From the NCBI GenBank assembly GCA_016213895.1, contig JACQZJ010000009.1:10246-74245 (forward strand): 64,000 bases of DNA. Direction: 5' to 3'. The notes beneath the pieces were generated by a model that saw only the letters and a program-made list of their open reading frames with translations, was not told the DNA's origin and ran no database searches. This document shows positions 7,930 to 61,507 of this stretch, one piece after another; position 1 is the first letter of the stretch; the number at the start of each line of letters is the position of its first letter. The stretch is from Planctomycetota bacterium (GTDB taxonomy: Bacteria > Planctomycetota > B15-G4 > JADJEK01). A program made the position numbers and the translations under genes.

Positions 7930-8436
7930 TCACCCGCCGGTCTCCTCGGTCGTCTCCGGCTCCGGGCGCGGCGCAGGCCCGCCCGCGCGCGCCCGCCGGA
8001 TGAGCGCCTGCGGGTCCGCGCGCGGCCGCACGAACAACAGGAAGCTCTCGCCCTTCTTCCTGCCGGCGTCCACAGTGTACACGCGCACCGTGGCGAGCAC
8101 GCCCCCTTCCGTGCCGGTCTCGGGATCGCTCTCCATCTTCTCGATCGCGTAGAAGTAGCCCGGGTACTCCTCGATCGGCACCTCCCGCACCGGCGCCAGC
8201 TCCTCGCCCGGCCCGGCCGCCGCGCCCTCAGCGAGCAGGCGCTCCACGCGCTCCTGCACCAAGCCGCTCAGGTTCGCGACCATCGCGCGCTGCGTCGCCC
8301 CGCGATGCAGGGCCAGACCGCCGGCGAAGAGCGCCAGCACGCCGACGATCCCGGTGAGGAAGATCAAGAGCGCGGCCATCACCTCGAGCAGGGTGAAGCC
8401 GCCGGCGCGGCCGCGCGGCGTCATGCATCCTCTCAT
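7930..8436 (-). CDS. Prepilin-type minor pseudopilin, GspI-like (second set)
   Basis: ATGA overlap with the upstream stop. RAGGFTLLEVMAALLIFLTGIVGV is a prepilin cleavage/N-methylation motif plus hydrophobic helix. 168 aa. Confidence 0.75.
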   Translation of the reverse strand: MRGCMTPRGRAGGFTLLEVMAALLIFLTGIVGVLALFAGGLALHRGATQRAMVANLSGLVQERVERLLAEGAAAGPGEELAPVREVPIEEYPGYFYAIEKMESDPETGTEGGVLATVRVYTVDAGRKKGESFLLFVRPRADPQALIRRARAGGPAPRPEPETTEETGG

Positions 8437-9575
8437 GGGTCGTTCCAGTCCTCGCGAAACACTGGAAGCTCCACGACCCGCTGGAAGGTCTGCCCGAAGC
8501 GCAGGCGCGCTCCCGCGGCGTGCGCCCGGCGGCCCGTGTTGCGCGCGCCGCGCAGCACGCGCACATCTCCCTCCGCGGCCTGGCTCCATTCCATCCACTC
8601 TCCCTCGACCTTGAGGAAGGGGTGCGGCGGCCGCGCACCCGCGAAGGGCTTGAACGTATCCGGGCGCAGGGTGTTCGAGGTCGAGGTCATGGCCGCCGCG
8701 AGCCGCACCGTGGCCGCCTCGTCCTCGTCCCGCTCCAGCACCAGGGTGACGCGCACTCTCCGCGGGAACACGTCGTCGGAGCCGTCCTCCAGCGAGGCGG
8801 CGCCCTTCCCGAGCAGGAAGCGGTTGAACCCCTCCACGTCGAGCAGGAGCGCCCGGGTCGAGTCCCAGACCGTGAGCCGGCCGCCGGCGCTGTCGGGCGC
8901 GTCCTTCCAGGAGAGGGTGTCGCGCGACCAGAACTCGAACCCGAGGTAGAGCACGTTGTCCGCGAGCGGCACGGCCGCGCCGCACAGCCGCCGCGGATCG
9001 TCGAACAGGCGTCCCTGAAAAAGCGATCCCTCGCCGCCGATGGGCGCGCGGAAGAGGCGGTAGAGCGTGAGCGGAGCCGGGTCGCGTCCGACCTGCGGCA
9101 GGGCGAGGGTGGCGTAGGCGATCTCCGCCAGGCCGCCCGGGGCGAGCTCGGCTTGACCGCCGCCCTGCTCGGTGTCGCTGACCGCGGCCGTGCCTCCGGG
9201 GTGGTCGCCAGCCAGGCGCACCCGGCTGTCGAAGCGCTCCTCCGGACAGGAGCGCACGAAACGCAGCCGCTGCAGCACGCTCTCCTCGGCCTGGTCCAGG
9301 TCGAGATCGTAGAAGCCGTGATCGGCGATCAGCCTGACCGGCGCCTCGCCCGCCCCGGGCGCGGAATCGGCGCGCAGCATGCGCAGGTCGGCCGCGATGA
9401 ACTCCAGCAGGGACGAGGCGCGCTCCAGCGCCTCGCGCCCGCCCTCGCCCATGCGCCACACGTCGAGGGCGCCCTTGATCATCTGCGAGAGCATGCCCAC
9501 GAGGATCCCGAAGATCGCGATCGCCGTCACCAGCTCGATGAGCGTGAAGCCCTGAGTCAGCCGCGGGCGGCGCAT
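8433..9575 (-). CDS. Prepilin-type minor pseudopilin, GspJ-like (second set), 380 aa
   Basis: ATG 9575 shares a base with the upstream TGA. RLTQGFTLIELVTAIAIFGILVGML is a prepilin motif. Size and position next to the K-like gene suggest a J-type protein. Confidence 0.7.
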   Translation of the reverse strand: MRRPRLTQGFTLIELVTAIAIFGILVGMLSQMIKGALDVWRMGEGGREALERASSLLEFIAADLRMLRADSAPGAGEAPVRLIADHGFYDLDLDQAEESVLQRLRFVRSCPEERFDSRVRLAGDHPGGTAAVSDTEQGGGQAELAPGGLAEIAYATLALPQVGRDPAPLTLYRLFRAPIGGEGSLFQGRLFDDPRRLCGAAVPLADNVLYLGFEFWSRDTLSWKDAPDSAGGRLTVWDSTRALLLDVEGFNRFLLGKGAASLEDGSDDVFPRRVRVTLVLERDEDEAATVRLAAAMTSTSNTLRPDTFKPFAGARPPHPFLKVEGEWMEWSQAAEGDVRVLRGARNTGRRAHAAGARLRFGQTFQRVVELPVFREDWNDP

Positions 9576-12500
9576 CAGTTCCACTCCTCGTAGGCCAGGC
9601 GCGCGGGCGCGGCCAGCCACTCGACGCCGAGGGCGCGCAGGCGCGGGGCGCGCTTCCACTCGTTCGAGCCGCCGCGCGCGGCGCCCGGATCGGGCTCGAA
9701 CACCGCCGCGTCGAAAGCGCCTTCCTTGAAGCGCGTGAAAACGCGCAGCTCCAGGCTGTCGCCCTGGCGCAGGATGTTGCTCGGCCCGGGCGCGCCCGCG
9801 GCCGCCTCGAAGAAGAAGACGTCGGGCGCCTGCGCCGGGTCCTCGGTGAAGCGGCCGCGCCCGCCCACGCGCGCCTCGACCACGAGGTCGGCCAGCTCGG
9901 ACGCGTTCTCCGCCTGCCAGGAGAGCTCCTGGTAGAAGCCGCCCTTGGCCTTGAGGAAGAAACCGAGGTAGGCCAGCTCCGGGTCGTCGGCGCGCGGCCG
10001 GTAGCGGTCCTCGTAGCGCGCCGGGAAGAGCAGCACGAGCGTGCCCTCGACGTGCGCCTCCGGCCGAGTGCCGAAGCGGCCGCGCAGCAAACCGACGTCG
10101 CCGCGCCGCTCCGGGTCGCGCCACAGCGGCATGACCAGCTTGTTGTCCTCCTTGCGCGTGTAGCCGAGCAGCTCGCGGCCGATCTGCACCAGGCCGCCGC
10201 GCGTGGGGAAGTCGCCCGCGTCCTTCAGGACCAGCTCGTGATCGTCCGGGCCGATCGACTTCTCCAGGCGCGACACGCGCAGGAAGGTCAGCTCGCGCGC
10301 GGCCGCGCTGCCGCGGTGCATCTGGATCGGCGTGCCGAGGAAGCCGCGGCCGTTCACGGCCACGGTCAGCTCGGCCTCGCGCCCCTCGTCCGGCATGTCC
10401 ACGTCGGAGAAGGCAATGAACTCGTCGTCGATGAGCAGCACGAAGCCGTCGTCCGGCAGGTTGCCCACCGGATCGATGGCCTCGATGACCGGGCCGCCGC
10501 GGTCCCAGAGGTTGTAGCGCAGCACGTCGCGCCGCAGGTAGAGGGGCTCGTCCGGCTCGAGCTTGTCGTCGCGGCCGAGGACGTAGCGCGGATGCCGCGG
10601 CAGCACCTTGGACGGCGTGTCCGGGGCGAAGAACTCCGCCTCGTCCAGCAGGCCGCCGCCCGGGGACGGCGCGCCGTACATGTCGCCGCCCAGGTAGAGG
10701 TTCTCGCCGATCCTGCTCGGCAGCTCGCCCGAGGGGAACTTCAGCAGGCGCGTCAGGTCGCGCGACTCGATGTTCTGGTTGGCGAGCGCGTCCATGGCCG
10801 CGCCCGGATCATCGGGATCGACGCGCGAGAACAGGTCGTAGAAGTTGGAGCGGTACTCGCCGAGCACGCCGACCTCGAAGGCGAGATGACAGGCGAATGC
10901 CCCCCAGCCCTCCACGTCGGTCTCGCAGTAGCCGTAGTTGACGCGCTGCTCCTCCTGCGAGTGCGTCAGCGGATCGACCAGCGTGACGAAGTCGCGCGCG
11001 CCCGGGCGCGCGGTGTAGATGCTCTCGTTGCGGAAGGTGCGGAACACCGGCAGGACGCGCGCCTCCTGGGGGTGCCGCTTGGCTCCGGTGCCGAGCACGC
11101 CGCGGAAGGCCAGCACGCCGCCGTCCAGACGCGTGGACTGGAGCTTCGCCTCCTGCGCGATCTCGTTCTTGTCCTTCTGCGTGCCGGCGATCTCCTCGTA
11201 GTTGAGCGCCTTGGCGATGGCCGCGGCCGTGGGCATGTCCGAGGACCCCGCGTTCTTCTTGGTGAAGAACACGGTCAGGTCGCGCGCCAGGATGTCGACC
11301 ACGGAGCGCACGCGCGTGGGCTCGTCGCGCACGAAGCAGCCCGCGCCGATGTCGTCGTAGCGCACCCACTCGGTGCCGCCGCCTTCCTCGCGGCCGGCGA
11401 AGCCCGTGCCGATCTGCACCATCTCCGGCCGCGTCAGGCCCTGCTGGCCGCGCCGCGGCACCGGGTAGTCCTGCACCACCTTCTCGTGGCCGAGCCCGAT
11501 CTTCACCGACAGCGGCACCACGAAGATCGGCTGCTTTTGTTCGTAGCCGCTCTCCGACGGCTCGAGCGCCCACTCGGCCACGTGCGCGTGCGCCCAGGTG
11601 GCGCTCTTGTCCGCGTCCACCGCCGAATCCTCGACCTGCAGCAGGTTGCACGTATCCCCGGCCCACTCGGCGTTCTCCGCCGCGCCCGGCGCCCGCTCCA
11701 CCGCCATGAGCGTGTTGTTGGCGAAGCCGCCGTAGCGGATCAGCTCGCCCAGGCCGATGATCTCGCCGTTGGTGGACCTCAGCACGTTCGTCCACGAGAA
11801 CTGGGCCTGCCTGTCTCCCATCTGCACCGTCTCGTTCCCGCCGGTCGAGGGCGGCCGGCGCGGGCAGGAGACGACGAGCGCGAAGCCGCCGTCCTCGTCG
11901 AACAGGCTCTCCAGGCTTGCGCTCGCCGCGGTCGAGCTGCTCGAGGCGTTGGGGTTGCCGAGGGCCACGAGCGGCAGGGACGTCACCGTGGAGTCGATGC
12001 CGGTGCCCACGGGCAGGGACGCGGCGCCGCCCCCGGTTTCGGTGAACTCCACGTTGATGCTCTTCGAGGCCTCGTCCGCGTCCGGATCGACCATCGCGAT
12101 CCCGAACTCGCCGAGCGCGTTCTTCAGTCCCGTGTTGCCGTGCGGCACGTACTCGGAGAGCAGGACCGCGGCGTAGCCGAACAGCTCGACCGCCTCGGAC
12201 TCCTCGGACTCCTCGTGATCCTGGCCGCGCGAGCCGCGGCGCGCGCGGCCGCCGAAAGCGTCGCCGGCCACGCGCGAGACGATGAGCTCCTTGTCCGTGC
12301 GGTCGAGGTACTCGATCAGCTCCCAGCCGATGCGCACGATGCCCCAGGGCGGGAAGAGGCTGGCGTCCTCGACCTTGATCTTGAAGTCCTGCCCGGCGGT
12401 GTAGCCCGGGATGTTGGCGAAGGGCCCGGCGTCGCCCGGCGGATCGAGCGGCTCGGCCAGGCGCGTCTGGAAGGCCCGCCGCCCGCGCGGCACGCCGTCC

Positions 12501-14752
12501 ACGAGGAGCACCAGGTCCGAGGGCTTCGTGCCCCGGGCGTAGAACGAGAGGTGATACGGCACGGTCGGATCGAACTCGAGCCCGTCGTCGAAGGCGTAGC
12601 GGATGTGCCCGATCTGCGCCGGGAAGCGCGCCGGATCGAGGTCGTCGCGCTGGCCCGGGAACTCGTCGCCGATCGGGTCGGGCACGGCGGCGTCGGCCAC
12701 GCGGAAGACCAGCTCGCCGCCCGCGCCGTCGTACGATGCGAAGATGCGGTTGGTCAGCTCGGCGTGCTCTTCGCTGCCGGCGTAGCCGCTGTCGAAGAGG
12801 ATCGACTCGCGCGTGCCGCTCTCTTCCCCGGGCTGCCACCACATCTCCAGGCAGAACGGCTTGGGCCAGCCCTTGCCGTCGAGCAGCTCGAGCAGGTCGG
12901 ACTCGACGCCGAGCGCCAGCGGCCCGCGCGCGGCCATGTCGTAGCCGTCGACCCGATCCGAGCCCGTATCGGTCTCGTCCAGGGGCGTGCCGTCGAAATG
13001 CAGGACGCGCAGCTGCGCTTCCTCCACCTGGCCGGGCTCCAAGCCCGGGTCCTCGGGCGAAGGAACGCGCAGCCCCTCCTTGCGCACCGGCGCCAGGCGC
13101 GCGTACGCGGGCTCTTCGCTCTCCTGGCGCGCGTGCCGCCCCGCCAGAGCCGAGCGCAGCCGCGAGGGCGGCTCGTGGAAGGCGTCGAAGTCCTGGACGT
13201 TCTCCGGGAAGGTGGCCCAGTACTTGCCGGTGCGCGACAGGCGGATCGCTTCCTCGAAATCGAGCTGCGAGGCGAACAGGGTGAGGGCCGCGCCGGCGGG
13301 GAACACCTGGCTCACCACGCGCGCGAAGGAGCGGGACTGCTCCCGCCCGAGCGGCAGGTTCTCGCTCGCCGCCGCGTCGATGGTGAACACGCCGTAGGAG
13401 CGGTAGACGAAGGGCGCGGTGGAGACGGCGAGCGACGCGCAGAGGGCGTTCTCCGCGTTCAGGAGCAAAGCAGTCTGGTCGTCGGCGCTGATCGCGTCGC
13501 CTTCCCGCAGCGCCGCCAGCAGGACGGCGAACGCCTCCGGGCCGGCGAGCGGCCGCGCTTCGAGCACGCGCTCGGCGATGAGCTCGGCCTCCTTGCGGTC
13601 GACCTGCTCGAACGAGCCCCTGAGCCTCACGCCCTCCATGAGGGCCACGAGCACGCGGCGCGAGCAGGAGTTGACGTTGACCGGCGCCCGCGCCAGCGCG
13701 TCGACCAGCGCCAGGTCGGCCTCGTACTCCCGCTCGACCGGCTCCTGCAGCACGAGGCGGAAAAGGTCCCCGCCGGCCTCGTCCACCGCCACCACCAGGT
13801 TGTATTCCTCGGCGTCTTCCTGGCGGATGCGCACCACCGTGCCCGGTCCCAGGCTGGCGCCGCCGGCCACGATCAGCTCGCGCGCCTCGTCCCCAGGACC
13901 GGCCGCGAGCACCAGGCGCGCGGTCGCCAGGAAGCGCTCCGAGCCCGGCAGCACGGAGTGGACGGTGAGGTCCGCCTCGAGGCCGTCGATCTCGTCCGCG
14001 CTGAAGGCCGCCTCGCCGAAGCGCGCGATGTCCTTCAGGGCGCGCACCGTCGCGCAGCCGCGGAACGTGCCGGGCGCGATCTTCCAGGGATACACGGCCG
14101 CGAGCAGGGCGCGGTAGTCGAGGACCGGGGCGCCCGCCGCATGGTCTCCCGGCGGCAGGCTGGCGACGACCGAGGTGCTGAAGCCGCGCGTGATGCCGGA
14201 GAGCGTGCGCCCGCTCCGCGAGCGGTAGAGGATCAGCTCGCCGTCCACCCAGACGACGCCCTGCTCGGGCAGACCCTCTGCCCCGGCCAGCCGCACCTCC
14301 AGCTCCTCCTCCGGCTTGAGGCGCTCGGCGAGGCGCGTGCCGCCGAGCAGGTTGCCGAGCAGGTGGAGGGAGGCGTGGTTGACGTTCACCTTGCCCTGCT
14401 CGTCCGCGGAGATGGCCGACCAGATCGTGCCGCGCGGATCGCTCGCCGGCTGGCCGAAGCGCTCCGCCCCGGCGCCGAGCCGCACGGCCAGCTCCTCCGG
14501 CGAGTCGTAGTGCGGCGTCTCGTCCCGGTCCGGGTCGGTGGCGGCCAGCATCTCCTCGGCCAAGGAGAGCGCCGAGCGCGCCGTGACCTGCGACTTCTCG
14601 CGAAAGACCTGGATGGTGGCCGACTTGTCCTGGCTGCGCATGGACAGCGCGAACGGCAGGGCGATGGTGATGAGCGCCATGAGCACGAGGATGACCGCCA
14701 TCAGGGCGGCGCCCCGCTCCTTGCCTGAGCCCCTGGCCGCGCGCTTTCTCAT
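9575..14752 (-). CDS. Giant GspK-like minor pseudopilin (1725 aa)
   Basis: ATG 14752 shares a base with the upstream TGA. N-terminus KERGAALMAVILVLMALITIALPF. SADEQGKVNVNHAS and RAPVNVNSCSRRVLVAL resemble the two GspK xGK(I/V)N(V/L)N segments within the first ~490 aa. A ~1230-aa extension of unknown family follows. Confidence 0.75.
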   Translation of the reverse strand: MRKRAARGSGKERGAALMAVILVLMALITIALPFALSMRSQDKSATIQVFREKSQVTARSALSLAEEMLAATDPDRDETPHYDSPEELAVRLGAGAERFGQPASDPRGTIWSAISADEQGKVNVNHASLHLLGNLLGGTRLAERLKPEEELEVRLAGAEGLPEQGVVWVDGELILYRSRSGRTLSGITRGFSTSVVASLPPGDHAAGAPVLDYRALLAAVYPWKIAPGTFRGCATVRALKDIARFGEAAFSADEIDGLEADLTVHSVLPGSERFLATARLVLAAGPGDEARELIVAGGASLGPGTVVRIRQEDAEEYNLVVAVDEAGGDLFRLVLQEPVEREYEADLALVDALARAPVNVNSCSRRVLVALMEGVRLRGSFEQVDRKEAELIAERVLEARPLAGPEAFAVLLAALREGDAISADDQTALLLNAENALCASLAVSTAPFVYRSYGVFTIDAAASENLPLGREQSRSFARVVSQVFPAGAALTLFASQLDFEEAIRLSRTGKYWATFPENVQDFDAFHEPPSRLRSALAGRHARQESEEPAYARLAPVRKEGLRVPSPEDPGLEPGQVEEAQLRVLHFDGTPLDETDTGSDRVDGYDMAARGPLALGVESDLLELLDGKGWPKPFCLEMWWQPGEESGTRESILFDSGYAGSEEHAELTNRIFASYDGAGGELVFRVADAAVPDPIGDEFPGQRDDLDPARFPAQIGHIRYAFDDGLEFDPTVPYHLSFYARGTKPSDLVLLVDGVPRGRRAFQTRLAEPLDPPGDAGPFANIPGYTAGQDFKIKVEDASLFPPWGIVRIGWELIEYLDRTDKELIVSRVAGDAFGGRARRGSRGQDHEESEESEAVELFGYAAVLLSEYVPHGNTGLKNALGEFGIAMVDPDADEASKSINVEFTETGGGAASLPVGTGIDSTVTSLPLVALGNPNASSSSTAASASLESLFDEDGGFALVVSCPRRPPSTGGNETVQMGDRQAQFSWTNVLRSTNGEIIGLGELIRYGGFANNTLMAVERAPGAAENAEWAGDTCNLLQVEDSAVDADKSATWAHAHVAEWALEPSESGYEQKQPIFVVPLSVKIGLGHEKVVQDYPVPRRGQQGLTRPEMVQIGTGFAGREEGGGTEWVRYDDIGAGCFVRDEPTRVRSVVDILARDLTVFFTKKNAGSSDMPTAAAIAKALNYEEIAGTQKDKNEIAQEAKLQSTRLDGGVLAFRGVLGTGAKRHPQEARVLPVFRTFRNESIYTARPGARDFVTLVDPLTHSQEEQRVNYGYCETDVEGWGAFACHLAFEVGVLGEYRSNFYDLFSRVDPDDPGAAMDALANQNIESRDLTRLLKFPSGELPSRIGENLYLGGDMYGAPSPGGGLLDEAEFFAPDTPSKVLPRHPRYVLGRDDKLEPDEPLYLRRDVLRYNLWDRGGPVIEAIDPVGNLPDDGFVLLIDDEFIAFSDVDMPDEGREAELTVAVNGRGFLGTPIQMHRGSAAARELTFLRVSRLEKSIGPDDHELVLKDAGDFPTRGGLVQIGRELLGYTRKEDNKLVMPLWRDPERRGDVGLLRGRFGTRPEAHVEGTLVLLFPARYEDRYRPRADDPELAYLGFFLKAKGGFYQELSWQAENASELADLVVEARVGGRGRFTEDPAQAPDVFFFEAAAGAPGPSNILRQGDSLELRVFTRFKEGAFDAAVFEPDPGAARGGSNEWKRAPRLRALGVEWLAAPARLAYEEWN

Positions 14753-15759
14753 CAGCGGATCTCCCCCAGCATGCCGACCACGATGTCGCGCGTGCGCTGC
14801 CCCTCGTCCTGGTCGTAGCGCAGCGTGATGACCGCCGGCCGGTCGTGGCGCGCGGCGTCGAGCCGCCCGCGGCCGTCGAAGAAGACGCTCCCGGCGGCGG
14901 CCAGGGTCACGCCGTGCGGCAGCGGCGGCGCGTCGCGCGTGACGATGCTCGCCAGGCGCACCTCGTCGACCAGGCCGGAGAAGGGCGGCGACCCGCCCCC
15001 GATCACGAGCGGCGCCTGCGGATCGGGGTGCGCCGGCAGGCGCACGTCGTTCGCCAGGCAGGCGCGCTCGCGGCCGTCGATCGCCAGGCGCAGGCTCTGG
15101 CCGTCGTAGGACAGCGCGACCGCGACCCAGCGCTCGCACGGCACCCGGTCCGCGGTGTCGAGGCGCAAAAAGCCGCCCGCGGCGCGGCTCTCCAGCACGC
15201 CTTCCTTGACGCGCACGCGCGCGGCGAGGGTGCGCTGCTCGGTCACCTCCAGGCGGAAGGCCTCTCCCTTGGCGATCAGCACGCCCGCGCAGTCCGGCTC
15301 GATCTGCACGTACGCCTCGACGCGCAGGCCGATGTCGCTGTCGAACGAGGGGGAGGTCCCGAGCACGGCGCTGCCCGGCGCCGCGCTCTCGAGGAGAAGC
15401 GCGTTGCCGATGGCGCCGCCCGGCTCGATCACGGCGCCGCCCGCGAGCTCGGCGTTGGTCGGCCAGCCGAACGACGTCGAGTCCTCGAAGTGCCAGTTGC
15501 CGGTGCTGACGAAGCCGCTGGCGAGCACGCGGTTGCCGGCGCCGTCGAAGTCCACGCGCGCCGCCGTGGACTGCTCCACGGCGAAGAGGCGCGCCGCGCG
15601 CAGCGCGTCCTTGACCTGCGCCACGGCCAGGCCGCGTCCCATGTTCATCCGGGAGAAGGCGCCGGCGCCGATCCCCAGGAGGATGGCGAAGAGGCCGAGA
15701 ACCGCCAGCAGCTCCAGGAGCGTGAAGCCAGCGTCACTCCAGGTAGGAGGCGATGTCAT
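14752..15759 (-). CDS. Prepilin-type pseudopilin (GspH-like N-terminus) fused to a LamG-type jelly-roll domain
   Basis: ATG 15759. WSDAGFTLLELLAVLGLFAILLGIG is a prepilin motif. WVAVALSYDGQSLRLAIDG..PLVIGGG..FSGLVDEVRLAS is the Laminin_G_3-type pattern. The gene overlaps the upstream gene by 26 nt. Confidence 0.75.
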   Translation of the reverse strand: MTSPPTWSDAGFTLLELLAVLGLFAILLGIGAGAFSRMNMGRGLAVAQVKDALRAARLFAVEQSTAARVDFDGAGNRVLASGFVSTGNWHFEDSTSFGWPTNAELAGGAVIEPGGAIGNALLLESAAPGSAVLGTSPSFDSDIGLRVEAYVQIEPDCAGVLIAKGEAFRLEVTEQRTLAARVRVKEGVLESRAAGGFLRLDTADRVPCERWVAVALSYDGQSLRLAIDGRERACLANDVRLPAHPDPQAPLVIGGGSPPFSGLVDEVRLASIVTRDAPPLPHGVTLAAAGSVFFDGRGRLDAARHDRPAVITLRYDQDEGQRTRDIVVGMLGEIR

Positions 15760-16363
15760 CGGCCGTGCCGTAGACGCCGTCCTCGCCCACCGATAGGAGC
15801 TGGTACGACTCTTTCGCATAGAAACCGCCGGTCAACTCGCTCACGGCGCCGGTCACGACCTTGGCCACCCACTCGGCCGTGTCGGCATCCAGGAACTCGT
15901 AGCACGACTCCTTGCCGTAGTCGTCGTAGCGGATGTAGACGAAGGGGTTGTCCCAGGCGTCGACCACCTCGAGCAGGACCGGCATCCCGTGGATGGTGAC
16001 GTTCTTGTCCGCGACGTCCTCGCCGTCCTGGTTCTTGAGGTACTTCTCCGGGATGCGCTCGCCGTCGTAGTCCTTGTGGAAGAAGCCCACGACCAGCGCC
16101 TCGTTGCCCTCGTCGACGTCGTTCTTCGCCTTCAAGCCGTAGCGCGCCAGCTGGCTGTACGGGTAGTCCCCGGTGCGGTTCCGGTACTGCTCGAGCAGCC
16201 CGCTGAGCTGCTGCAGGCGCGAGCGCGTGTCCGCCTCCTTGCCCGTCGCCAGGAACTTGGGGTACTGCGTGGCCCCGATCCCGAGGAGCAGAGCCAGGAT
16301 CGAGATCACGACCAGGAGCTCGATCAACGTGAAGGCGCGTCGTGTTCGCATTGGTGCCGCCAT
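15734..16363 (-). CDS. GspG-like major pseudopilin (second copy, 209 aa)
   Basis: RRAFTLIELLVVISILALLLGI is a prepilin motif. DAWDNPFVYIRY and LLSVGEDGVYGTADDI resemble the GspG core motifs. ATG 16351 is an alternative start. Confidence 0.85.
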   Translation of the reverse strand: MAAPMRTRRAFTLIELLVVISILALLLGIGATQYPKFLATGKEADTRSRLQQLSGLLEQYRNRTGDYPYSQLARYGLKAKNDVDEGNEALVVGFFHKDYDGERIPEKYLKNQDGEDVADKNVTIHGMPVLLEVVDAWDNPFVYIRYDDYGKESCYEFLDADTAEWVAKVVTGAVSELTGGFYAKESYQLLSVGEDGVYGTADDIASYLE

Positions 16364-16405: not shown

Positions 16406-19144
16406 TCACCCCTGGTAGCGCACGACGCGCACGAAGCCGCTGGTGACGGCCACGTTCTGGCGGGCGTCGGCCTCGACGAAGAGCGCGCCCACCACCTCGC
16501 GCCTGAGCTTCTTCAGGCCGCTCACCTCGATCCCGTCCAGGACCACGCGCTCGTCGACCAGGATGCGGAAGACCCCCCTTTCGGCGTCCGTGCGCTCGAT
16601 GCCCAGCTGGAACTCCTGGCCGGCCGGCAGGCGCACGTCCGGCACCTCGAGCCAGTCCGCCTCCGCCTCCTCCCTGCTCCTCGCCAGGACGCGCAGCGAC
16701 CCGTCCGCGCAGCGCGCCACCGCGATCTCGCCCATGATCTGCGGCCCGGAGTCCTTGCCTGGGCGCTCGTAGGCGAAACGCAGGCCGGCCTTGCCCTCGC
16801 AGGAGGCCGCCACGCCGAACCGCGCCTCGAGCAGCACGAAGGCGGCGCCCGCGATCACGCGGCTCAGCTCGCTGCGCTCCCCCGCGCTCTCCTGGCGCTG
16901 CACGCCGCTGATCTCGAGCTGGCCGTCGCCGTTCAGGCGGATCTGCGGTCCGTGCGGCTCGGTCAACGTCCAGTCGTTCTTGATCTGCTTGCGGTTGAAG
17001 CGGTCGACCCACTGCTCCTTGCCGCGATGGTCGTCGACGAGCGCCTGGTTGCGGTCGGCGTAGAGGCGGTGCGGGTCGGACTCCGCCGGGCACGCGGCGC
17101 GGGCCGCGGCAAACTGCTGCAGCGCCTGATCGACGTTCCCCTCGCGGTACTCGCACCAGGCGACGCCGCACAGGGCCGCGGCGGCCGGCAGCTGCGGGTC
17201 GCCCGCGCCCATCTTGAACTCCTCCCGCGCCGCCGCCACCTGGTTCATGCGCAGGAGCGCCGCGCCGAGCAGCACCCGCACCTCGCGGTTGTCCGGCTCG
17301 CGCCGCAGCGACTCGCGCAAATACCGCTCCGCCGTCTCCGGCTCGTCCTGGAGGAGCGCCGTGTAGCCCAGCTCGTTCAGCACGTCGGTGATGCGTCCGT
17401 CCCGCTCCAGGGACTCGCGCAGGCGCGCCTCGGCCGACTCCAGGTCGCCGCTCAGGCGCGCGATGCGGCCGGCGCGGTACAGGCCGAAGGGCTCGCCCGG
17501 CTCGAAGAGCAGCGCCTCCTCGAACCAGAAGGCCGCCTTCTCCAGGTTCCCGGCCGACTCCTCCAGCGCGCCGAGAGCCACCGCGGAGTCGAACGCCGCC
17601 AGCGGGTCCAGGTCGGCCGCCTCCTGGAAGCGGGCGCGCGCCTGCTCCAGGGCCGCGGGCTCGCCCGCGCCGCGCGCCAGGGCCACGCCCAGGTCGTAGA
17701 CCGCGGCCCGGTGGCGCGGATTCTCCTCCAGCGCCGTGCGGAACTCGCCGATCGCGTTGGCCGTGTCTCCGCTCATCAGGTCGAGCACGCCCTTGAGCAC
17801 TCGCGCCTCGCTCTGCTCGCCTCCGAGCCTCAGGACGCGGTCGACCTCGCTCAGCGCCTCCTGCGCGCGGTTGACGCGGATCAGGGCGCGCACCAACTCC
17901 ACGCGCAGCTGCTGGCGCGCCTCGGCGCTCAGCCCGCTGACCTTGAGCGCGCTCTCCAGCGCCGCCACCGCCTCGGCGCCGCGCTCCGCGGCGAGGAGCA
18001 CCCGTCCCAGCTCCGCCCACGCCGCCTGGTCGTTGGGGTTGAGCCTCAGCCCCGCCCGCAGGATCGACTCCGCCGCCTGCGCCAAGCCAAGCCGCCGCAG
18101 GATGCGCGCGCGCCGCGTCTCCAGGCGCGAGTCCGCGACCCCGGCCGCGCGCGCCTCGTCGCACACGCCGATCTCGGCCTCCGTGTCGCCGGCCAGCTCC
18201 TGCACCCGGCCGAGCAGCTCCCAGGCGTCCGCTTCCAGCGGGTTGAAGGACAGGGCGGAACGCAGGAACTGCTCCGCGCCCTCGAGCGCGGCGCCGGCGT
18301 CCTCGCTCGCCCAGCCCAGGCACTTGCGCGCCGCCTCGAGCTGCGAGCGCACGCTGCCGGCGCTCGGCTTGACCAGGCGCCGCTCGAGCACCACGCGGTT
18401 GCGCACCGTGTCGGCGAAGCCGAAGCCCTGGCCGAATGCGCCGTCGCCCTCCAGGTCCGCGCGTTGGAACGTCGCCGTGCCCGAGTCCTTGCCCGTGACG
18501 ACGTTAACCGCCTTGAACTGCAGCGCCAGCGAGGGATTGTCCAGGAGCGCGAACTTGTCCGGATTCAGCACGTAGCCGTAGACGCGCGGGCGCCCCTTGC
18601 GCTTGAACCAGTCGTAGCTCTTCTCGAGAGCGGCCTCGGCCGGGGCCGGCGCGGCTGCCTCTGCCCCCGCCGCGGGAGGGAAGTCGATGCCGCCGAAGCG
18701 CTCGTCCTCGGCCGCGCCCTCCTCCGCGCTGGCGTCATCTTCCTCCCCGGCAGGCGCGGGCTGTTCCGGCTCGGCGCCCGCGGCCGCGGGGGCCGCGGGG
18801 GGCGGCGCCAGGCGGAAGAAGCGCAGGTGCGCGGACTCGACCGAAGGCTCGGGCAGCAGGCCCACGGCGCCGATCGGCGGGAGCGGCGGAGGATCGAGGA
18901 TGAGGGGCGGCAGCGGGTTCCAATCCCGCGGCGGCATGAAGACGTCGCGCCCGCCCCGTTGCGTGCGCGGCTCGTCCGTGTCCGGGAAGCGCACCTCCGG
19001 CACGCGCGGCGCCTCGACCAGCGGGAACGCGCGCTCGCGCGGCAAGGGCGGCGACTGGTAGGCGCCCGAGTGGCGCAGATAGATGAGGAGCCCGGCGATG
19101 ACCAGCACCAGCAGGAACAGGGCCTGCTCCCGATTGGTCTTCAT
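16406..19144 (-). CDS. Membrane-anchored proline-rich TPR-repeat protein with C-terminal beta-sandwich-like domain (912 aa)
   Basis: ATGA overlap with the upstream stop. TM helix ALFLLVLVIAGLLIYL. Pro/Ala-rich spacer. Many TPR-like helical repeats (..AWAELGRVLLAAERGAEAVAALESALK..). The last ~200 aa are beta-rich. Confidence 0.7.
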   Translation of the reverse strand: MKTNREQALFLLVLVIAGLLIYLRHSGAYQSPPLPRERAFPLVEAPRVPEVRFPDTDEPRTQRGGRDVFMPPRDWNPLPPLILDPPPLPPIGAVGLLPEPSVESAHLRFFRLAPPPAAPAAAGAEPEQPAPAGEEDDASAEEGAAEDERFGGIDFPPAAGAEAAAPAPAEAALEKSYDWFKRKGRPRVYGYVLNPDKFALLDNPSLALQFKAVNVVTGKDSGTATFQRADLEGDGAFGQGFGFADTVRNRVVLERRLVKPSAGSVRSQLEAARKCLGWASEDAGAALEGAEQFLRSALSFNPLEADAWELLGRVQELAGDTEAEIGVCDEARAAGVADSRLETRRARILRRLGLAQAAESILRAGLRLNPNDQAAWAELGRVLLAAERGAEAVAALESALKVSGLSAEARQQLRVELVRALIRVNRAQEALSEVDRVLRLGGEQSEARVLKGVLDLMSGDTANAIGEFRTALEENPRHRAAVYDLGVALARGAGEPAALEQARARFQEAADLDPLAAFDSAVALGALEESAGNLEKAAFWFEEALLFEPGEPFGLYRAGRIARLSGDLESAEARLRESLERDGRITDVLNELGYTALLQDEPETAERYLRESLRREPDNREVRVLLGAALLRMNQVAAAREEFKMGAGDPQLPAAAALCGVAWCEYREGNVDQALQQFAAARAACPAESDPHRLYADRNQALVDDHRGKEQWVDRFNRKQIKNDWTLTEPHGPQIRLNGDGQLEISGVQRQESAGERSELSRVIAGAAFVLLEARFGVAASCEGKAGLRFAYERPGKDSGPQIMGEIAVARCADGSLRVLARSREEAEADWLEVPDVRLPAGQEFQLGIERTDAERGVFRILVDERVVLDGIEVSGLKKLRREVVGALFVEADARQNVAVTSGFVRVVRYQG

Positions 19145-19920
19145 CGCTTCGCTCCCGTGACCTGGACCGCGGGATCGATGGTGAGCGCCGACACCGTCAG
19201 CTTCAGCACGGTCAAGCCGGAGGACTTGCCCTGGTCGGGCTCGATCATGAAGTCCTCGACGCACAGGAACTGCTCGCCGCCCCGCACCAGGCTGTCGATC
19301 AACTCGGCGATGGCAGCCGTCGTGCCCGCGATCTCGAAGCGCACTTCCAACGGCTCGACGAAAACCTCGCTCTTCTGGCGCGCGCGCCCCTTCTTCTCCA
19401 CGATCTCGATTCCGTCCACGGCGCGCACCTCGGCCACGATCGCCGCGCTCACGACCTGTTCGACGACGCACAGGCCGCGCAGGTAGCGCTGGATCGCCTC
19501 CTTGCCGTCGGGCGTGTAGTCCGGCAGCCCGAGCGTGTCCTTGACGCGGATGTTGCGGCGCGCGGCAAACTCGACCAGGTCCTCGCGGGCCTGCCCGCGT
19601 ATCGCGTTGTAGAGCAGATCGGGATTCGGCTCGTTCTTCGGCAGCAGGTAGCGTTCCTCGGTGACGAAGGCCAGGCGCGCGTACAGCTCCTCGAGCCGCG
19701 CGGCGAGCGCCGAGCTCTCCCCCGTCACCGCCGCCACCTCCGCGGCGCGCGGCGCCTCCTCCCGGCGCAGGCCCGAGGCATGCCGCTCCACGCCCCGCGC
19801 CGCGGCCGGCGCGTCCCAGATCGAGCCCACGACGCCCTTGCCGATGAGGACCAGCACGACCGCGCAGCCGACCCCGAGGATGAACCTCCGGTTGCCCTGC
19901 CAAACGTCGTTCAGGTCCAT
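19141..19920 (-). CDS. GspM / PilO-like inner-membrane assembly protein
   Basis: ATG 19920 shares a base with the upstream TGA. Short cytoplasmic N-terminus, TM helix FILGVGCAVVLVLIG and a coiled coil. The C-terminal EVRFEIAGTTAAIAELIDSL..LTVLKLTVSALTI is the typical PilO/GspM ferredoxin-like end. Confidence 0.55.
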   Translation of the reverse strand: MDLNDVWQGNRRFILGVGCAVVLVLIGKGVVGSIWDAPAAARGVERHASGLRREEAPRAAEVAAVTGESSALAARLEELYARLAFVTEERYLLPKNEPNPDLLYNAIRGQAREDLVEFAARRNIRVKDTLGLPDYTPDGKEAIQRYLRGLCVVEQVVSAAIVAEVRAVDGIEIVEKKGRARQKSEVFVEPLEVRFEIAGTTAAIAELIDSLVRGGEQFLCVEDFMIEPDQGKSSGLTVLKLTVSALTIDPAVQVTGAKR

Positions 19921-21608
19921 CACTTCCGCTCCTCGCCGCCCGCCTCGTCCTCGCCGGCCTCCTCGCCGCCGGCAGGCGCCTCCGAGAAGTTCATGGTGAT
20001 CGTCCACTGGAACGGCTTGTTCGCGCCGCCCGGGAAGATCGCCGTCTTCGGCGTGCGCGGCAGGAGCGCGTCGCGGTCGAGGTCCTGCGCGAAGCGGTTG
20101 AAGAGCTGCTCCAGCGCCTCCGCCCCCTCCCTCCCCTCGCCGCGCACCTCGACCACCGGCTTGGCCTCGCCCACGATGCCGAGGTCCAGGTCGGTGGTGC
20201 GCTTGTGCGCGATCGAGGTCACGTAGAAGTCCTCCGGCAAGTAGCGCTGCAGGAGGGCGAGAGTGCGCTCGAGGCCGGTGCCGCCGACGACTCGCTCCTC
20301 CAGGAGCTCCACGCGGCGCGCGTACTCGGCGCGCTCCGCGACCGCCTTCTCGTAGTCGCGGCGCCGCCCCTGGCGCGTCTCCAGCTCGCGCCGGAACCTG
20401 GTCTCGTCGCGCGCCGCAGCGGCCTCGTCCGTGGCGCTCCTGTAGGCGTCATGCGCCACGAAGAGCACGGCGAGCACCCCGGCGGCGATGGCGAAGGCCG
20501 TCTTCTCCTTGAAGGTGCGCGCCTTCTTCAAGGCCGGCGGCAGGATCTCGATGGAGTAGAGGTCCGGGTACAGGGCCGAGACGGCCAGGCCGAGCGCCAC
20601 CACGGCGGTCGTCCGGCTCTTCTCGTCGAGCTGCGGGTCCACGCCCGAGGTGTCCACCTGCCCAAACGGGTCGAAGCGCTCCACCGGCACGCCCAGGTTG
20701 GACGAGAGGTAGCGGTCCAGCCCCTTGAGCAGCGCGCCGCCGCCGCACAGCAGCACGCGGTCGAGCGCCAGCTCGCGCACGCCGGTCTGCGAACGGGCGA
20801 AGGTCACCGAGGACTGCACCATGGAGAAGATCTGCCCGGTGGCTCCGGACAGGGCGCGCGCGACCTTCTCCTCCTGCGGCGAGCGCCGCGTCGCCTGGTC
20901 GAACGGCGACACGTCGGCCAGCTCCTCCTTGAGGCGCCGCGCCTTGTGGGCGCTGACGTTGAAGGAGGCGATCAGGGCTTCGTCGAAGAGGTCGCCGCCT
21001 CCCGAGAGGTTGCGCGCGAAGACCAGGTCGCCGTTCTGCACCACGGCCATGTCCGTGTTGCGCGCGCCGATGTTCATCAAGAGCGCCGTCCCCTCGGCGT
21101 TTCCGGCCTTGCGGTAGGCGTTGTACAGGGCGATCGCGTTCGGCCGGAAGGAACGCGCCTTCAGGCCGGCGGCGCCGAGCACGGCCGCGTGCGCGTCGAG
21201 CACCCCGCGCTTCGCCAGGGCGAGCAGCACGGTGTCGTCCGAGGACACGTCCGAGGCTACCGGCACCAAGTTGAAGTCGGCGGCCAGCTCCTCGCCGGAC
21301 TGGCCGGTCATCTCCTTGATCTCGAACTCCATGAGCTGCCGCAGCTGCCAGTCCGGAACGGGCGGCACCTGGCTGTAGCGGATGACCACGTCGCGCCCGG
21401 TGAGGCCGCAGTCGACCGCGCCCTTCACGTTCGCCGCGGCCAGGGCCTCGCGCAGCAGCAGGCCGACGTGGTCCAGGTCCTCACGCCGCTCCCGCGGCAG
21501 CGGCACCACGACCAGCTGGCGCACCTGGAAGGCGCCCTTGCGGTCGACGCCGGCCACCAGCCGAACCGCATCCGTCCCGATGTCGATGCCGATCGCGCCG
21601 CGCGCCAT
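19920..21608 (-). CDS. GspL-like protein: PilM actin-like ATPase-fold domain fused to a TM + PilN-like domain
   Basis: The N-terminus GAIGIDIGTDAVRLV is PilM-like. TM helix AFAIAAGVLAVLFVA lies mid-protein, followed by a coiled coil plus a periplasmic domain. ATG 21608 shares a base with the upstream TGA; GTG 21611 is an alternative start. Confidence 0.7.
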   Translation of the reverse strand: MARGAIGIDIGTDAVRLVAGVDRKGAFQVRQLVVVPLPRERREDLDHVGLLLREALAAANVKGAVDCGLTGRDVVIRYSQVPPVPDWQLRQLMEFEIKEMTGQSGEELAADFNLVPVASDVSSDDTVLLALAKRGVLDAHAAVLGAAGLKARSFRPNAIALYNAYRKAGNAEGTALLMNIGARNTDMAVVQNGDLVFARNLSGGGDLFDEALIASFNVSAHKARRLKEELADVSPFDQATRRSPQEEKVARALSGATGQIFSMVQSSVTFARSQTGVRELALDRVLLCGGGALLKGLDRYLSSNLGVPVERFDPFGQVDTSGVDPQLDEKSRTTAVVALGLAVSALYPDLYSIEILPPALKKARTFKEKTAFAIAAGVLAVLFVAHDAYRSATDEAAAARDETRFRRELETRQGRRRDYEKAVAERAEYARRVELLEERVVGGTGLERTLALLQRYLPEDFYVTSIAHKRTTDLDLGIVGEAKPVVEVRGEGREGAEALEQLFNRFAQDLDRDALLPRTPKTAIFPGGANKPFQWTITMNFSEAPAGGEEAGEDEAGGEERK

Positions 21609-23962
21609 CACCGCTCCTCGATCCTCTCCTGAGCCCGCCGCGCCGGCTCCGATCCGGGGTAGAACTCGCGCAGGAACGCGGCGATCTCGCGCGCCACGCG
21701 CTCGCGCGCCGGCTGCTCCGCGAGGGCCGTCTCCAACCGGCGCAGAAGCAGCTCCGCCTCGCGCTCGCGCGCGCTCTGGACCAGCGTCTGGCGCTCGCTG
21801 GCCAGCTCGACCTCCGTGCCCTGGAACTCGCCCGCGGACGCGGTTCCGGCCAGAGCCGCGGCCGCGGCCCGCGCGTCCTCCTCCGCCTCCAGGTACGCAG
21901 CCGGGCTCCGGAGGAATCGCGCGCGCTCCACGGCCGCGTCCAGACGCGCCGCGTAGCGCTCGCGCTCGCGGATGATCTCTTTCCGCCTGTTGTCCGCCTC
22001 GGCCAGGATCCCCTCGTCGAACGGGAACTCGTTGGTGACGCGGTCGAGGATGGTCAGCGCCTCACCCAGCCGCCCGGCCTGCTGCGCCGCGCGCGCCTTG
22101 CCCGCCAGCTCGGTCGCCTGGGTCTTTTCCTCGACGAAATCGACCTGCATGCGGACCACGACCCTTTCCGCCGCCGGCCGCAGCACCAGCTGGTAGACCT
22201 CCGCGCCCCGCGCCGCCTCGACCTGCACCTCGGGTTCGAAGGCGAGCCGCATGCGCGTCGTCCCCTTGCCCAGCACCAGGCCGGTCACCGCGTCCGCCTC
22301 GAACGAGTCGCGGTACGGCTCGAGCCGGCCGCCGGCCACGACGCCCACCGGCTCCTCGGTCAGCGCCGGCAGGAGCGTGATCGGCAAGCGCGCCGTCGCG
22401 CCCGGAGCCTGCCACTCGACGCGCCAGCTGGCCGACCGCGCATCCGTGGCGAAGGCCGAGGCGTAAGCGGCCGCCGCGCCGCCGGGGAGAAGCAGCGCGC
22501 CGTTGTGCAGGAACCTGTCGGCGGCGCGCGCGCTCCCCCCCTCGGCCACCTCCAAGAGCAGCGCGCCCATGCGCAGCAGGTCGGCGCCGCGCCGCACCAG
22601 CAGGTGCTCGCCGGCGCGCTCGAACTCGAACTGGTTGATCGACGCGACCGTCGCGCGCCCGGGACCGCCCTCCTCGACCACGAGGTCGTCGAACACGACC
22701 TCGCCGGAGCTGCCGGAAGCGACCAGGACCAGCGCGAGCTGCGTCGCGCCCGCGGGCGGCGCCAGCTCGGCGGAGATCTGCCGCCAGTCCGCGACGGCCG
22801 ACGAGCCGACCTGCACCAGCACGCGGTAGCTCTCGTCCGCGGCGCTCGAGAACTGCGCCGCGAGCACGGCCACCGCCTCGTCGCTCGTCCTGGCGTAGCC
22901 GCTGATCCTGAGCGTGCGCCCGCTCACGCGCATGCCGTCCCGCAGGAGCGCCACCGCCTCGCTCCCCGAGGGACGGGCGAGCAGCGCCTGCTGCCCGGAA
23001 CGCACCGCGGTCGTAGTCAACTGGAACGCCGCGCCCGAGGCGTCGCCGCCGCCCAGATCCCACGCCGTGCCCGGCGCCGGCGCGCTCTCGGAGATCTCGA
23101 ACGACCAGCGCTCGCCGAGCAGGTTGCCCGCGGCCGCCGGCGCCGCCGGCGCTTCGGACGAGGCGCGCCGCACGTGCCAGTAGAACCAGCCGGCGCCGCC
23201 CAGGGCGGCGAGCAGCAGCAGCAGCCCCACGAGGGCCAGCGGCCCGCGCCGCTCCGCGCCCGCCACGTTCTGCACGACGCGCACCGTCGGCACGTTGATC
23301 AGCGTGTGCGCGCCCTCGTCCGGCTCGGCCGCCGGCAGCGGGGGATCGCCTTGCGCCGCGTCGGCCAGCACGAACTCGCTCTCCCCCATGACCACGCGGT
23401 CGCCGTGGTCGAGCACGATCTCGTCGATGCGCTTCCCCTCGAGGAACGTCCCGTTGGTCGAACCCAGGTCCTTGAGCACCGGCCGGCCCTGCTCCAGGAC
23501 GAGCTCCGCGTGCACCCCCGACACCTTGGCGTCCTTGAGCACCACCGTGTTGCTCGACCTGCGGCCGAAGGTCAGCCGCTCGCCCGCGAAGCGCACGCGC
23601 TCGCCGGCGCGCTCGCCGCGGCAGAAGATCAGCACGTACTGCGCCTGCCCGGCGCGCGCCGCCTCTCCGCCCGCGGCCGCCTCGGCCGCGCTCGCGAAGA
23701 GCAGCTCGGTCCGACCCACGCGGATGCGGTCGCCGTCCGCGAGCTTCACGCGGTCGATGCGCTCCTCGCCGCGGAACGTGCCGTTCGCCGACTTCAGGTC
23801 CTCGAGGATGTAGTCCTCGCCCTCGCGCGTGATGCGGCAGTGGCGGCGCGAGACTCCCGCGTCGTCGAGGATGATCTCGTTCCCCTCGTCGCGCCCGATG
23901 CGGCACAGATCCTGGAACGGGGTCTCGCGCGGCTCTCCGCCGAGGTTGATAAGCTTCGCCAT
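21608..23962 (-). CDS. Transmembrane protein with two N-terminal FHA domains
   Basis: FHA 1: CRIGRDEGNEIILDDAGVSRRHCRI..LEDLKSANGTF. FHA 2: LTFGRRSSNTVVLKDAKVSGVHAEL..LKDLGSTNGTF. TM helix LALVGLLLLLAALGGAGWFYW. About 500 aa follow outside the membrane. Confidence 0.8.
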   Translation of the reverse strand: MAKLINLGGEPRETPFQDLCRIGRDEGNEIILDDAGVSRRHCRITREGEDYILEDLKSANGTFRGEERIDRVKLADGDRIRVGRTELLFASAAEAAAGGEAARAGQAQYVLIFCRGERAGERVRFAGERLTFGRRSSNTVVLKDAKVSGVHAELVLEQGRPVLKDLGSTNGTFLEGKRIDEIVLDHGDRVVMGESEFVLADAAQGDPPLPAAEPDEGAHTLINVPTVRVVQNVAGAERRGPLALVGLLLLLAALGGAGWFYWHVRRASSEAPAAPAAAGNLLGERWSFEISESAPAPGTAWDLGGGDASGAAFQLTTTAVRSGQQALLARPSGSEAVALLRDGMRVSGRTLRISGYARTSDEAVAVLAAQFSSAADESYRVLVQVGSSAVADWRQISAELAPPAGATQLALVLVASGSSGEVVFDDLVVEEGGPGRATVASINQFEFERAGEHLLVRRGADLLRMGALLLEVAEGGSARAADRFLHNGALLLPGGAAAAYASAFATDARSASWRVEWQAPGATARLPITLLPALTEEPVGVVAGGRLEPYRDSFEADAVTGLVLGKGTTRMRLAFEPEVQVEAARGAEVYQLVLRPAAERVVVRMQVDFVEEKTQATELAGKARAAQQAGRLGEALTILDRVTNEFPFDEGILAEADNRRKEIIRERERYAARLDAAVERARFLRSPAAYLEAEEDARAAAAALAGTASAGEFQGTEVELASERQTLVQSAREREAELLLRRLETALAEQPARERVAREIAAFLREFYPGSEPARRAQERIEER

Positions 23963-25041: not shown

Positions 25042-25062
25042 GGCGGCCCGCTCCAACGCATC

Positions 25063-25091: not shown

Positions 25092-25161
25092 TCGCGGCGC
25101 CGCGGTACAGTGCCCCCCCGGACGGGCGCTCGCGCGGCGCCCGCCGCGCAAGAGGACGCAT

Positions 25162-59787: not shown

Positions 59788-59793
59788 CGAGCG

Positions 59794-61503: not shown

Positions 61504-61507
61504 CGCC

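Follow-up and report, generated by a model that had tools for sequence, protein, structure and literature searches.

A 1725-residue GspK-like protein of Planctomycetota, a candidate tip pilin carrying a large modular head

INTRODUCTION

K-type minor pilins cap all type IV filaments and license their assembly, and a current question is whether the function of the filament tip is gained in trans, as with PilY1, or by insertions in cis, as in CpaL and ComZ (PMC13533445). The present work concerns a 1725-residue GspK-like protein, here called the giant, whose gene lies in a 64,000-nucleotide stretch of DNA from a Planctomycetota bacterium (GenBank assembly GCA_016213895.1, contig JACQZJ010000009.1, positions 10,246 to 74,245 of the forward strand; hereafter the window). 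Its family, which is found in at least 191 species, may represent an extreme case: a K subunit with a modular cargo of ~135 kDa and with H, J and I partners of its own.

The last strand of the K-subunit sheet is supplied in three ways: in trans, in cis, or in cis after a large insertion (PMC13533445). PilC/PilY1 donates it in trans with its last ~10 residues, as does MshQ according to modelling, while GspK supplies its own last strand in cis, and CpaL, ComZ and others do so in cis after a large insertion (PMC13533445). MshQ (~1200 aa) and CpaL (~600 aa) have been modelled as tip-associated proteins, CpaL also on genetic evidence (PMC13533445). PilY1, with dimensions of ~7.5 x 9.5 nm, has been proposed to cork the PilQ secretin from outside at rest, to move through the secretin channel and to ride at the tip (PMC11525922). 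Dextran-binding fibres have been seen on cultured planctomycetes (PMC5394234). The surface fibres of Planctomycetota and their capture of macromolecules are poorly understood.

RESULTS

Gene and family

The giant is one intact, real and conserved gene on the minus strand (positions 9575–14752, stop codon at 9575–9577), as judged from its translation, from start/stop overlaps and from full-length homologues. The start codon is the ATG at 14752, which yields 1725 residues, and the N-termini of the homologues begin at the same place. One base is shared between this ATG and the stop codon of the pseudopilin gene upstream (TGATG), and GGGGAG lies ~9 nt upstream of the ATG; at the other end, the stop of the giant and the ATG of the next pseudopilin gene share a base likewise, with GAGGAG preceding that ATG. 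Through the overlaps on both sides, the three genes are translationally coupled. The G+C content of the window is 70–75%, and mechanical lists of its open reading frames (ORFs) are therefore full of spurious frames. The longest mechanical ORF in the frame of the giant (9575–15139, GTG start, 1854 aa) begins inside the upstream gene; we rejected this reading as an artefact of the high G+C content and favoured the ATG at 14752.

A word-indexed search returned 15 homologues, with identities from 88% down to 26%, most of them complete at 1633–1744 aa; the remainder include two partial sequences and an outlier of 2002 aa. The profile version of this search added no further homologues (16 proteins in total). 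An exhaustive hmmsearch with the extension alone (residues 540–1725), run against representatives of 50%-identity clusters, gave 1135 representatives at E<1e-3, of which 452 stayed at E<1e-30, indicating that the word-indexed search badly underestimates the family. Nearly all of the complete representatives are 1600–1850 aa long, the extension making up their C-terminal ~1100 residues. Expanded K homologues of the kind raised in an earlier note on this DNA, which was made from the sequence without database searches, thus do occur among the relatives, at the same size and in hundreds of species.

In a scan of one genome per species of GTDB, at least 191 species contain a relative of the giant. 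The best 80 of these 191 are metagenome-assembled genomes (MAGs), nearly all labelled Planctomycetota, and the closest relative, at 88% identity, comes from a mine-water MAG deposited as Phycisphaera mikurensis. Almost all named sources of the family are Planctomycetota MAGs, and among the records readable the family was met in MAGs only. Its named members are called 'hypothetical protein' or, automatically, 'PulG'; the current annotation misses a large, coherent family. Literature searches on Planctomycetota pseudopilins and on the Verru_Chthon cassette yielded no description of it.

In the family alignment, conservation runs along the entire chain, and independent assemblies have yielded 123 full-length representatives with the same architecture. 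It is this family conservation, not read coverage, that rules out a chimera or misassembly.

The GspK-like domain

The earlier note had read residues ~1–490 as GspK-like on the basis of three motifs, and their positions are as it quoted them: GAALMAVILVLMALITIALPF at 14–34, SADEQGKVNVNHAS at 115–128 and RAPVNVNSCSRRVLVAL at 355–371. Our comparisons bear out this reading and extend the homology over the whole length of GspK, to about residue 496. Since Pfam and NCBIfam searches with the single protein gave almost nothing, scans of family members and profile–profile comparison were needed. The NCBIfam family T2SS_GspK (NF037980) matches 28 of 28 diverse family members (best E 7e-13), while Pfam T2SSK (PF03934) is found in 7 of 13 relatives (best E 1.1e-4) and HHH_3 in 5 of the same 13. 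The earlier note had made its reading depend on the alignment of the N-terminus to GspK profiles; the profile alignment was run, and GspK was matched. With a canonical GspK profile built from 32 sequences, hhalign gave 97.7% and E 2e-12 against the N-terminal alignment of the giant, covering the helix, the first strand and the D..N.N motif. After deletion of residues 138–345, these values became 98.4% and E 4.8e-15, and the alignment covered GspK 1–323 of 327. The GspK invariants D99/N105/N107 correspond to D117/N123/N125 of the giant, and N217/N219 to N359/N361. In a PDB sequence search with the N-terminal profile, the top match was XcpX (5vtm_X), on the PVNVN motif (E 0.11).

The AF2 model of the N-terminal part, computed from a 13-sequence alignment, has a mean confidence (pLDDT) of 82 and a predicted template modelling score (pTM) of 0.79, and adopts a pilin topology. 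A 60-residue helix and a first strand are followed by beta modules and helices (138–353), a helical part (354–434) and two strands (455–465 and 471–482). All segments of the giant described here and below are encoded on the minus strand. Residues 1–70 (14543–14752) comprise a basic leader (MRKRAARGSGKERG) and then the hydrophobic, pilin-type alpha1 helix, which spans 10–70 in the model and lies within the T2SS_GspK match at 12–83. There is no Glu at +5 after G14: the giant reads ERG|AALMAVILVL and the family consensus R-GFALIAVLLVL, both in agreement with the GspK consensus QRGVALL.VL, which also lacks Glu+5. Residues 71–137 (14342–14542) hold the first pilin-fold beta-strand and the DEQGKVNVN motif, which hhalign places on D99/N105/N107 among the invariant columns of GspK.

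The next segment, residues 138–353 (13694–14341), is an insertion within the K domain. The earlier note had pointed to some 200 extra residues between the motifs, and these are real: the model, with pLDDT mostly 84–93, shows two beta-rich modules, a first copy of a barrel module (141–211) and a second beta module (274–353), with helices (213–261) between them, an assignment also based on self-comparison by hhalign and on Foldseek. Of the ~180-residue alpha-domain of GspK, columns ~120–205 (the DWID.D...GAED..Y segment) have no counterpart in the giant, and the beta modules and helices at 138–353 stand in their place. A helical remnant of the alpha-domain follows at residues 354–436 (13445–13693), where the PVNVN motif is aligned to GspK N217/N219, as seen in the PDB profile search, in hhalign and in the T2SSK matches of the relatives. 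Residues 437–500 (13253–13444) contain the closing strands of the K pilin fold (455–465 and 471–482) and then a conserved segment up to Q496, defined by the model and by conservation.

A Foldseek search of PDB with the whole N-terminal model was headed by the small N-terminal barrels of tailspikes, depolymerases, GH110 and F1-ATPase, which reflect the inserted modules, and GspK was not among the 50 best of 567 matches. The K domain is among the best-conserved parts of the family, including the motifs shared with GspK. As judged from these profile comparisons, the giant is homologous to GspK over its first ~496 residues. Strict membership of the GspK family fails on the curated cut-offs, on the first half of the alpha-domain, on the five-fold size and on gene order.

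The extension and the C-terminus

Beyond the K domain, the AF2 model of the extension is mostly beta, with confident blocks at roughly 880–1230 and 1400–1710. Residues 501–580 (13013–13252) form a linker, conserved in its first part (FEEA.RLSR, W512, P516) and variable, with low model confidence, in the rest. Residues 581–770 (12443–13012; VLHFD ... VDGVPRG) are a candidate for a jelly-roll of the LamG/concanavalin type, as suggested by Laminin_G_3 matches in 4 of 13 relatives and by a beta-rich model of moderate confidence. A ~70-aa beta-barrel module with the motif G.v.IG.E.i.Y...L....RG..GT.a.H..G occurs in at least five copies when the family profile is compared with itself: at 141–211, inside the K domain, and at 775–858, 991–1021, 1426–1491 and 1495–1579. 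The second copy (775–858; 12179–12430) was delimited by self-hhalign, in which 136–210 aligns with 775–855 (76%) and 672–858 with 1404–1576 (93%). The central region, residues 859–1400 (10553–12178), holds the partial module at 991–1021 and a modelled block at ~880–1230 with TEWVRYD and FRGVLGT..H. Residues 1404–1579 (10016–10543), again from self-hhalign, carry the tandem barrels. A C-terminal beta-sandwich domain occupies residues 1580–1715 (9608–10015), with strands at model positions 1057–1174 and pLDDT of about 57–85 per 10-residue block.

In the PHROG database, family members match virion structural, tail and baseplate-wedge families (best E 3.8e-9), and the tail and virion structural matches fall on the tandem barrels. 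Pfam Rcc01698_C was detected within the extension in 5 of 13 family members. When the extension model was compared with the predicted viral structures of BFVD, 24 phage proteins were obtained at E<1e-3, comprising tail fibre, tail, baseplate and structural proteins, some of them matching over ~90 residues at about 2 Å. The statement in the earlier note that the extension contains no recognisable family is only partly true, in that weak Laminin_G_3 and Rcc01698_C/phage-tail barrel modules can be detected. The extension is thus a patchwork of modules of the kind met in binding or structural proteins.

An invariant K-F-P-S-G-E-L-P motif is present at residues 1338–1345 of the central region (10718–10741), preceded by the conserved R1331 and R1335, where the model has pLDDT <50. 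The motif may form a loop that serves in an interaction or an active site.

The last ten residues (1716–1725; 9578–9607; consensus xRVLxREExR) constitute a conserved tail of fixed length and a candidate donor beta-strand. In each of the 123 full-length representatives, the chain stops no more than one residue away from a common alignment position, and the invariant W1699 sits 25–27 aa before the end in all 123, whereas other segments between landmarks vary in length with standard deviations of up to 34. In the extension model, which lacks the K domain, the last ten residues are unplaced (pLDDT <50). We also examined the tail by mutual information in 172 sequences (effective number ~118), with sliding windows as controls. 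The strongest partners of residues 1716–1724 are residues 476–481 of the K domain, with z up to 4.6, a weak signal that 7 of 1175 control windows match; the confidently modelled 455–465/471–482 hairpin itself reaches a maximum z of 2.9. The fixed tail fits the CpaL/ComZ pattern of strand supply, by analogy with those proteins. That the strand actually returns to the K-domain sheet is a tentative proposal, which we regard as somewhat doubtful.

Genomic context

The giant stands within an array of pseudopilin genes on the minus strand. Directly upstream and coupled to it lies H' (14752–15759), a 335-aa pseudopilin with Pfam matches to N_methyl and to Laminin_G_3 (E 1.3e-9), present at 67 of the 80 loci fetched. 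It is preceded by G' (15734–16363), a 209-aa GspG-like pseudopilin that matches TIGR01710 in its N-terminal part only (E 3.9e-11; 65 of 80 loci). Downstream of the giant, J' (8433–9575; 73 of 80 loci) is a 380-aa GspJ-like pseudopilin, aligned by hhalign to E. coli GspJ at 95.1% over 69 N-terminal columns, and I' (7930–8436) is a GspI/PilV-like pseudopilin of 164–168 aa with an N-terminal match to N_methyl and PilV (E 1.9e-5). J' carries a C-terminal barrel module at residues 291–364 (EW..Y...L..RG.R.T.A..H..G), which matches residues 141–216 of the giant at 86.8% in hhalign, and its profile weakly touches a chain of the phage tip attachment protein J in PDB (8rk3_o, E 0.69). With LamG in H', a barrel in J' and modules in the giant, the presumed tip partners H', K and J' are all enlarged with lectin-like or phage-tail-like modules.

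Upstream of G' (16406–23962, minus strand), Pfam, NCBIfam and conserved order identify genes for a 912-aa TPR membrane protein, a 259-aa protein of GspM/PilO size, a fused PilM–PilN with GspL-like architecture and a protein with two FHA domains. On every contig long enough to show it, the 12-gene order FHA-PilMN-M-TPR-G'-H'-giant-J'-I'-P512-SurA-ScpB is unchanged, among the 80 loci as well as on two contigs of distant homologues, which have the identical order.

The window contains a second locus, a canonical-looking core operon of a type II secretion system (T2SS) encoding GspD-E-F-G-H-I-J on the plus strand (55712–63562), 41 kb from the giant; ATPase, platform and secretin genes occur nowhere else in the window. 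Its GspE scores 631 bits, which is at the equivalog cut-off; the scores of GspF and GspG lie within a bit of theirs. The 438 nt between GspJ and the window end contain no K-like ORF, and no K, L, M or C gene follows within the window. Both loci may depend on the giant as their sole K homologue. In the core operon, the GspJ-like protein (62630–63562, plus strand) ends in a Gly/Asp-rich low-complexity tail of ~70 residues (GAGGAGSGDDDGGDDGDGGDGTGGHGTGG...).

Other genes of the array deserve mention. P512 (6395–7933, minus strand; 66 of 80 loci) is a 512-aa secreted protein with a TPR and a C-terminal zinc-ribbon-like CxxC...CxxC motif, and it is followed by a gene for a SurA-like peptidyl-prolyl isomerase (57 of 80 loci); dedicated chaperone or pilotin functions are possible for both. 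The fused PilM–PilN (19920–21611, minus strand) matches the PilM-like family of Akkermansia Amuc_1101 (E 2.3e-40), which links the locus to pilus-like clusters of the Planctomycetes–Verrucomicrobia–Chlamydiae (PVC) superphylum. Regulatory genes are found at 21608–26964 and 36176–37642: the two-FHA protein heads the operon, a divergent sigma-54 activator contains FHA and GAF domains, and a Ser/Thr protein kinase lies 12 kb off. This arrangement suggests phosphothreonine-dependent control of the operon. A 290-aa membrane protein (24169–25041, minus strand) has a T2SSG-like domain (E 3.3e-5), lacks a prepilin N-methylation motif and is nearby in only 4 of 80 loci.

DISCUSSION

Based on these analyses, we are inclined to regard the giant as a K-type, apical minor pilin of a type IV filament or T2SS-like machine, in which the cap and a large ligand-binding head are joined in one polypeptide; we consider this assignment moderately probable. 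The best reading by analogy is that of a cis fusion between a tip pilin and an adhesin-like head, which would work like PilX together with PilY1, or like MshQ, CpaL/TadG or ComZ. In such a mechanism, the N-terminal helix, whether cleaved or uncleaved, would anchor the giant in the inner membrane, and the K domain would nucleate a tip complex with J', I' and H'. A G-type pilin (G' and/or the G of the core operon) would then polymerise below the tip complex, presumably driven by the GspE and GspF encoded 41 kb away, so that the ~135-kDa head would be pushed toward or through the GspD secretin, where it might bind a ligand, in the likeliest case a glycan or a surface. At rest, the head may cork the secretin, as has been proposed for PilY1. 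The extreme C-terminus could fold back as an added strand on the K sheet, in which case the 1230 residues would be an insertion between the acceptor sheet and the donor strand, as in CpaL and ComZ.

The earlier note had held that a five-fold larger cap is hard to reconcile with a secretin gate. This objection is weakened by the precedents of PilY1, MshQ and CpaL, rather than by data on the giant itself. Among the roles that it had suggested instead, namely a plug, an adhesin-like tip or a substrate-recruiting scaffold, the module content favours the adhesin-like tip. The plug is compatible with a role at the tip: PilY1 is proposed both to cork the secretin and to travel at the tip, and plug and adhesin roles are therefore not exclusive.

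Several observations weigh against a tip pilin with a ligand-binding head. Alone, the window protein reaches 25.4 bits on T2SS_GspK, over residues 12–83 only, the cut-off being 130 bits, and it has no Pfam match, T2SSK and T2SSK_1st included. It also lacks the Laminin_G_3 match, which is seen in only 4 of 13 relatives, with a best E of 1.2e-5. The model of the extension is poor overall (pLDDT 64.5, pTM 0.45), and comparison of the extension with PDB gave no sequence-profile match and no Foldseek match below E 0.1. The phage-tail likeness concerns a small, common barrel, which indicates a binding or structural module and not a ligand. As for strand return, the covariation of the tail is no stronger than that of the seven control windows mentioned above, and residues 488–496 also couple to 472–481, so that the last K strand could be supplied in cis directly, as in GspK. 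On the genomic side, GspD, GspE and GspF genes were found within 10 kb of the giant in none of the 80 loci, and the gene order around it is G-H-K-J-I, not the near-universal I-J-K. Finally, every family member comes from a MAG, under an uninformative or automatic name.

In the most serious alternative, a classical T2SS is split over two loci and the giant caps its pseudopilus strictly within the periplasm; the head, never leaving that compartment, would recruit folded substrates or push them, or else act as a gate beneath the secretin. In its favour, the only ATPase, platform and secretin of the window are GspE, GspF and GspD of the operon at 55.7–63.6 kb, which has G, H, I and J and is followed by no K, L or M within the window, while the cluster of the giant provides a fused PilM–PilN with the GspL architecture and a GspM-sized protein; moreover, no PilT-type retraction ATPase was seen in the window. 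However, G', H', J' and I' all belong to the cluster of the giant, which therefore looks like a full second set of pilin genes and not like the parts that the other operon lacks; the K gene of that operon could sit just past the window end. The phage receptor-binding/tail and lectin modules also fit an external ligand better than a transient contact with a substrate. We therefore consider a split T2SS rather unlikely.

Another possibility would be that the giant acts independently of any filament, as a periplasmic scaffold or enzyme anchored in the inner membrane by a degenerate K-like segment, for example in the processing of the envelope or of polysaccharides. Invariant polar residues (H734, E811, E1128-W1129, KFPSGELP at 1338–1345 and H1479) could be catalytic or binding residues, and the SurA-like and TPR neighbours have envelope roles. 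Nevertheless, searches of Pfam, NCBIfam and PDB by sequence and of folds by structure returned no enzyme family, and the conservation of the K domain, GspK motifs included, is among the highest in the chain. Pseudopilin genes always flank the giant and are translationally coupled to it. A scaffold or enzyme of this kind is accordingly very improbable. The remaining explanation, that the ORF arose as an error of assembly or annotation (as a chimera, or as a spurious frame in DNA of 72% G+C, where long spurious ORFs do arise and the opposite strand here has one of 1558 aa), is effectively refuted by a third-position G+C of 0.89 in the frame of the giant, by collinear full-length homologues in hundreds of independent assemblies at identities down to 26%, by conservation over the whole length and by the confident AF2 model of the N-terminal part.

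If the assignment to a filament tip is taken further, the head may be described as an insertion before a donor strand made of the last ~10 residues, and thus as the largest 'cis PilY1' known, with H' and J' forming a lectin-like grappling tip on an extensible filament, used by an uncultured clade of Planctomycetota for polysaccharides or surfaces. We hold this elaboration to be decidedly unlikely in all its parts together. Were it true, the dextran-binding fibres of cultured planctomycetes would gain a molecular candidate in the grappling tip, and the giant could be the sole K for both pilin sets of a two-locus T2SS; the link to those fibres is speculation. The family allows one to test what cargo the tip and the secretin can accommodate, whether a strand can return over more than 1200 residues, and which ligands the filaments of uncultured Planctomycetota bind.

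Comparison with known systems places the giant closest in its N-terminal part to GspK/XcpX (PF21687 and PF03934, NF037980). In the T2SS, GspK joins I and J in a trimer at the apex of the pseudopilus. Both have a basic leader, a Gly and a hydrophobic helix without Glu+5, a D..N.N motif after the first strand, a second N.N motif in a helix-hairpin and a pilin sheet interrupted by an inserted domain, and both are encoded among G/H/I/J-type pseudopilin genes. On the other hand, GspK has ~330 aa (~300–350 aa across its family) and the giant 1725 aa with its 1230-aa extension; ~210 aa of beta modules replace the first half of the GspK alpha-domain; and, while the genes in the E. coli reference order run H-I-J-K beside D/E/F, those of the giant run H-K-J-I with D/E/F not adjacent.

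Two further families show more distant resemblances. Verru_Chthon cassette protein A (TIGR02600) is a large, uncharacterised family in the PVC superphylum, whose genes lie with those of pilin-like cassette proteins. It gives weak matches in 5 of 28 members of the giant's family (best E 0.0035) and none in the window protein, all far below the cut-offs, and J' and H' touch cassette proteins C and D (TIGR02599, TIGR02596) in the N-terminal helix only (19.6 bits against a cut-off of 256.5, and 19.3 against 70); the relation is remote at best. Modular type IV pilins such as S. sanguinis PilB (PMC8179133) resemble the giant in that a functional adhesive module is grafted onto a pilin moiety. However, the PilB type consists of an ordinary pilin with one C-terminal module, whereas the giant joins a K-type cap subunit to more than 1200 aa containing many modules.

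In function, PilY1/PilC and MshQ are the likely equivalents of the giant, by analogy, as tip adhesins, priming factors or secretin corks. Their heads are similar in size (PilY1 ~1160 aa and MshQ ~1200 aa, against the ~1230-aa extension), and they too are encoded beside K/J/I-type minor pilin genes. They differ in being separate, non-pilin proteins that dock on PilK in trans, while the head of the giant is covalently fused to its K domain. Neither the PilC/PilY1 beta-propeller nor a vWA domain gave a Pfam match in the giant or 13 relatives, or a PDB fold match at E<0.1 with the C-terminal model, which is of low confidence.

CpaL/TadG of Tad pili and ComZ of the Thermus competence pilus share with the giant the combination of an N-terminal minor-pilin-like domain and a large non-pilin region, for which a role at the tip has been proposed, and the conserved, length-fixed C-terminus of the giant could return to the pilin sheet as theirs does. 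The insertion is ~470 aa in CpaL and would be ~1230 aa in the giant, which is about three times the size of CpaL or ComZ. Unlike them, the giant shows no detectable vWA domain or beta-solenoid, and the machinery in the window is of the GspD/E/F type, not of the Tad (CpaF/RcpA) or competence-pilus type. Considered as a presumed tip pilin of the K type, the giant is the one with by far the largest cargo so far noted, and as a concept the cargo-bearing K subunit is already established.

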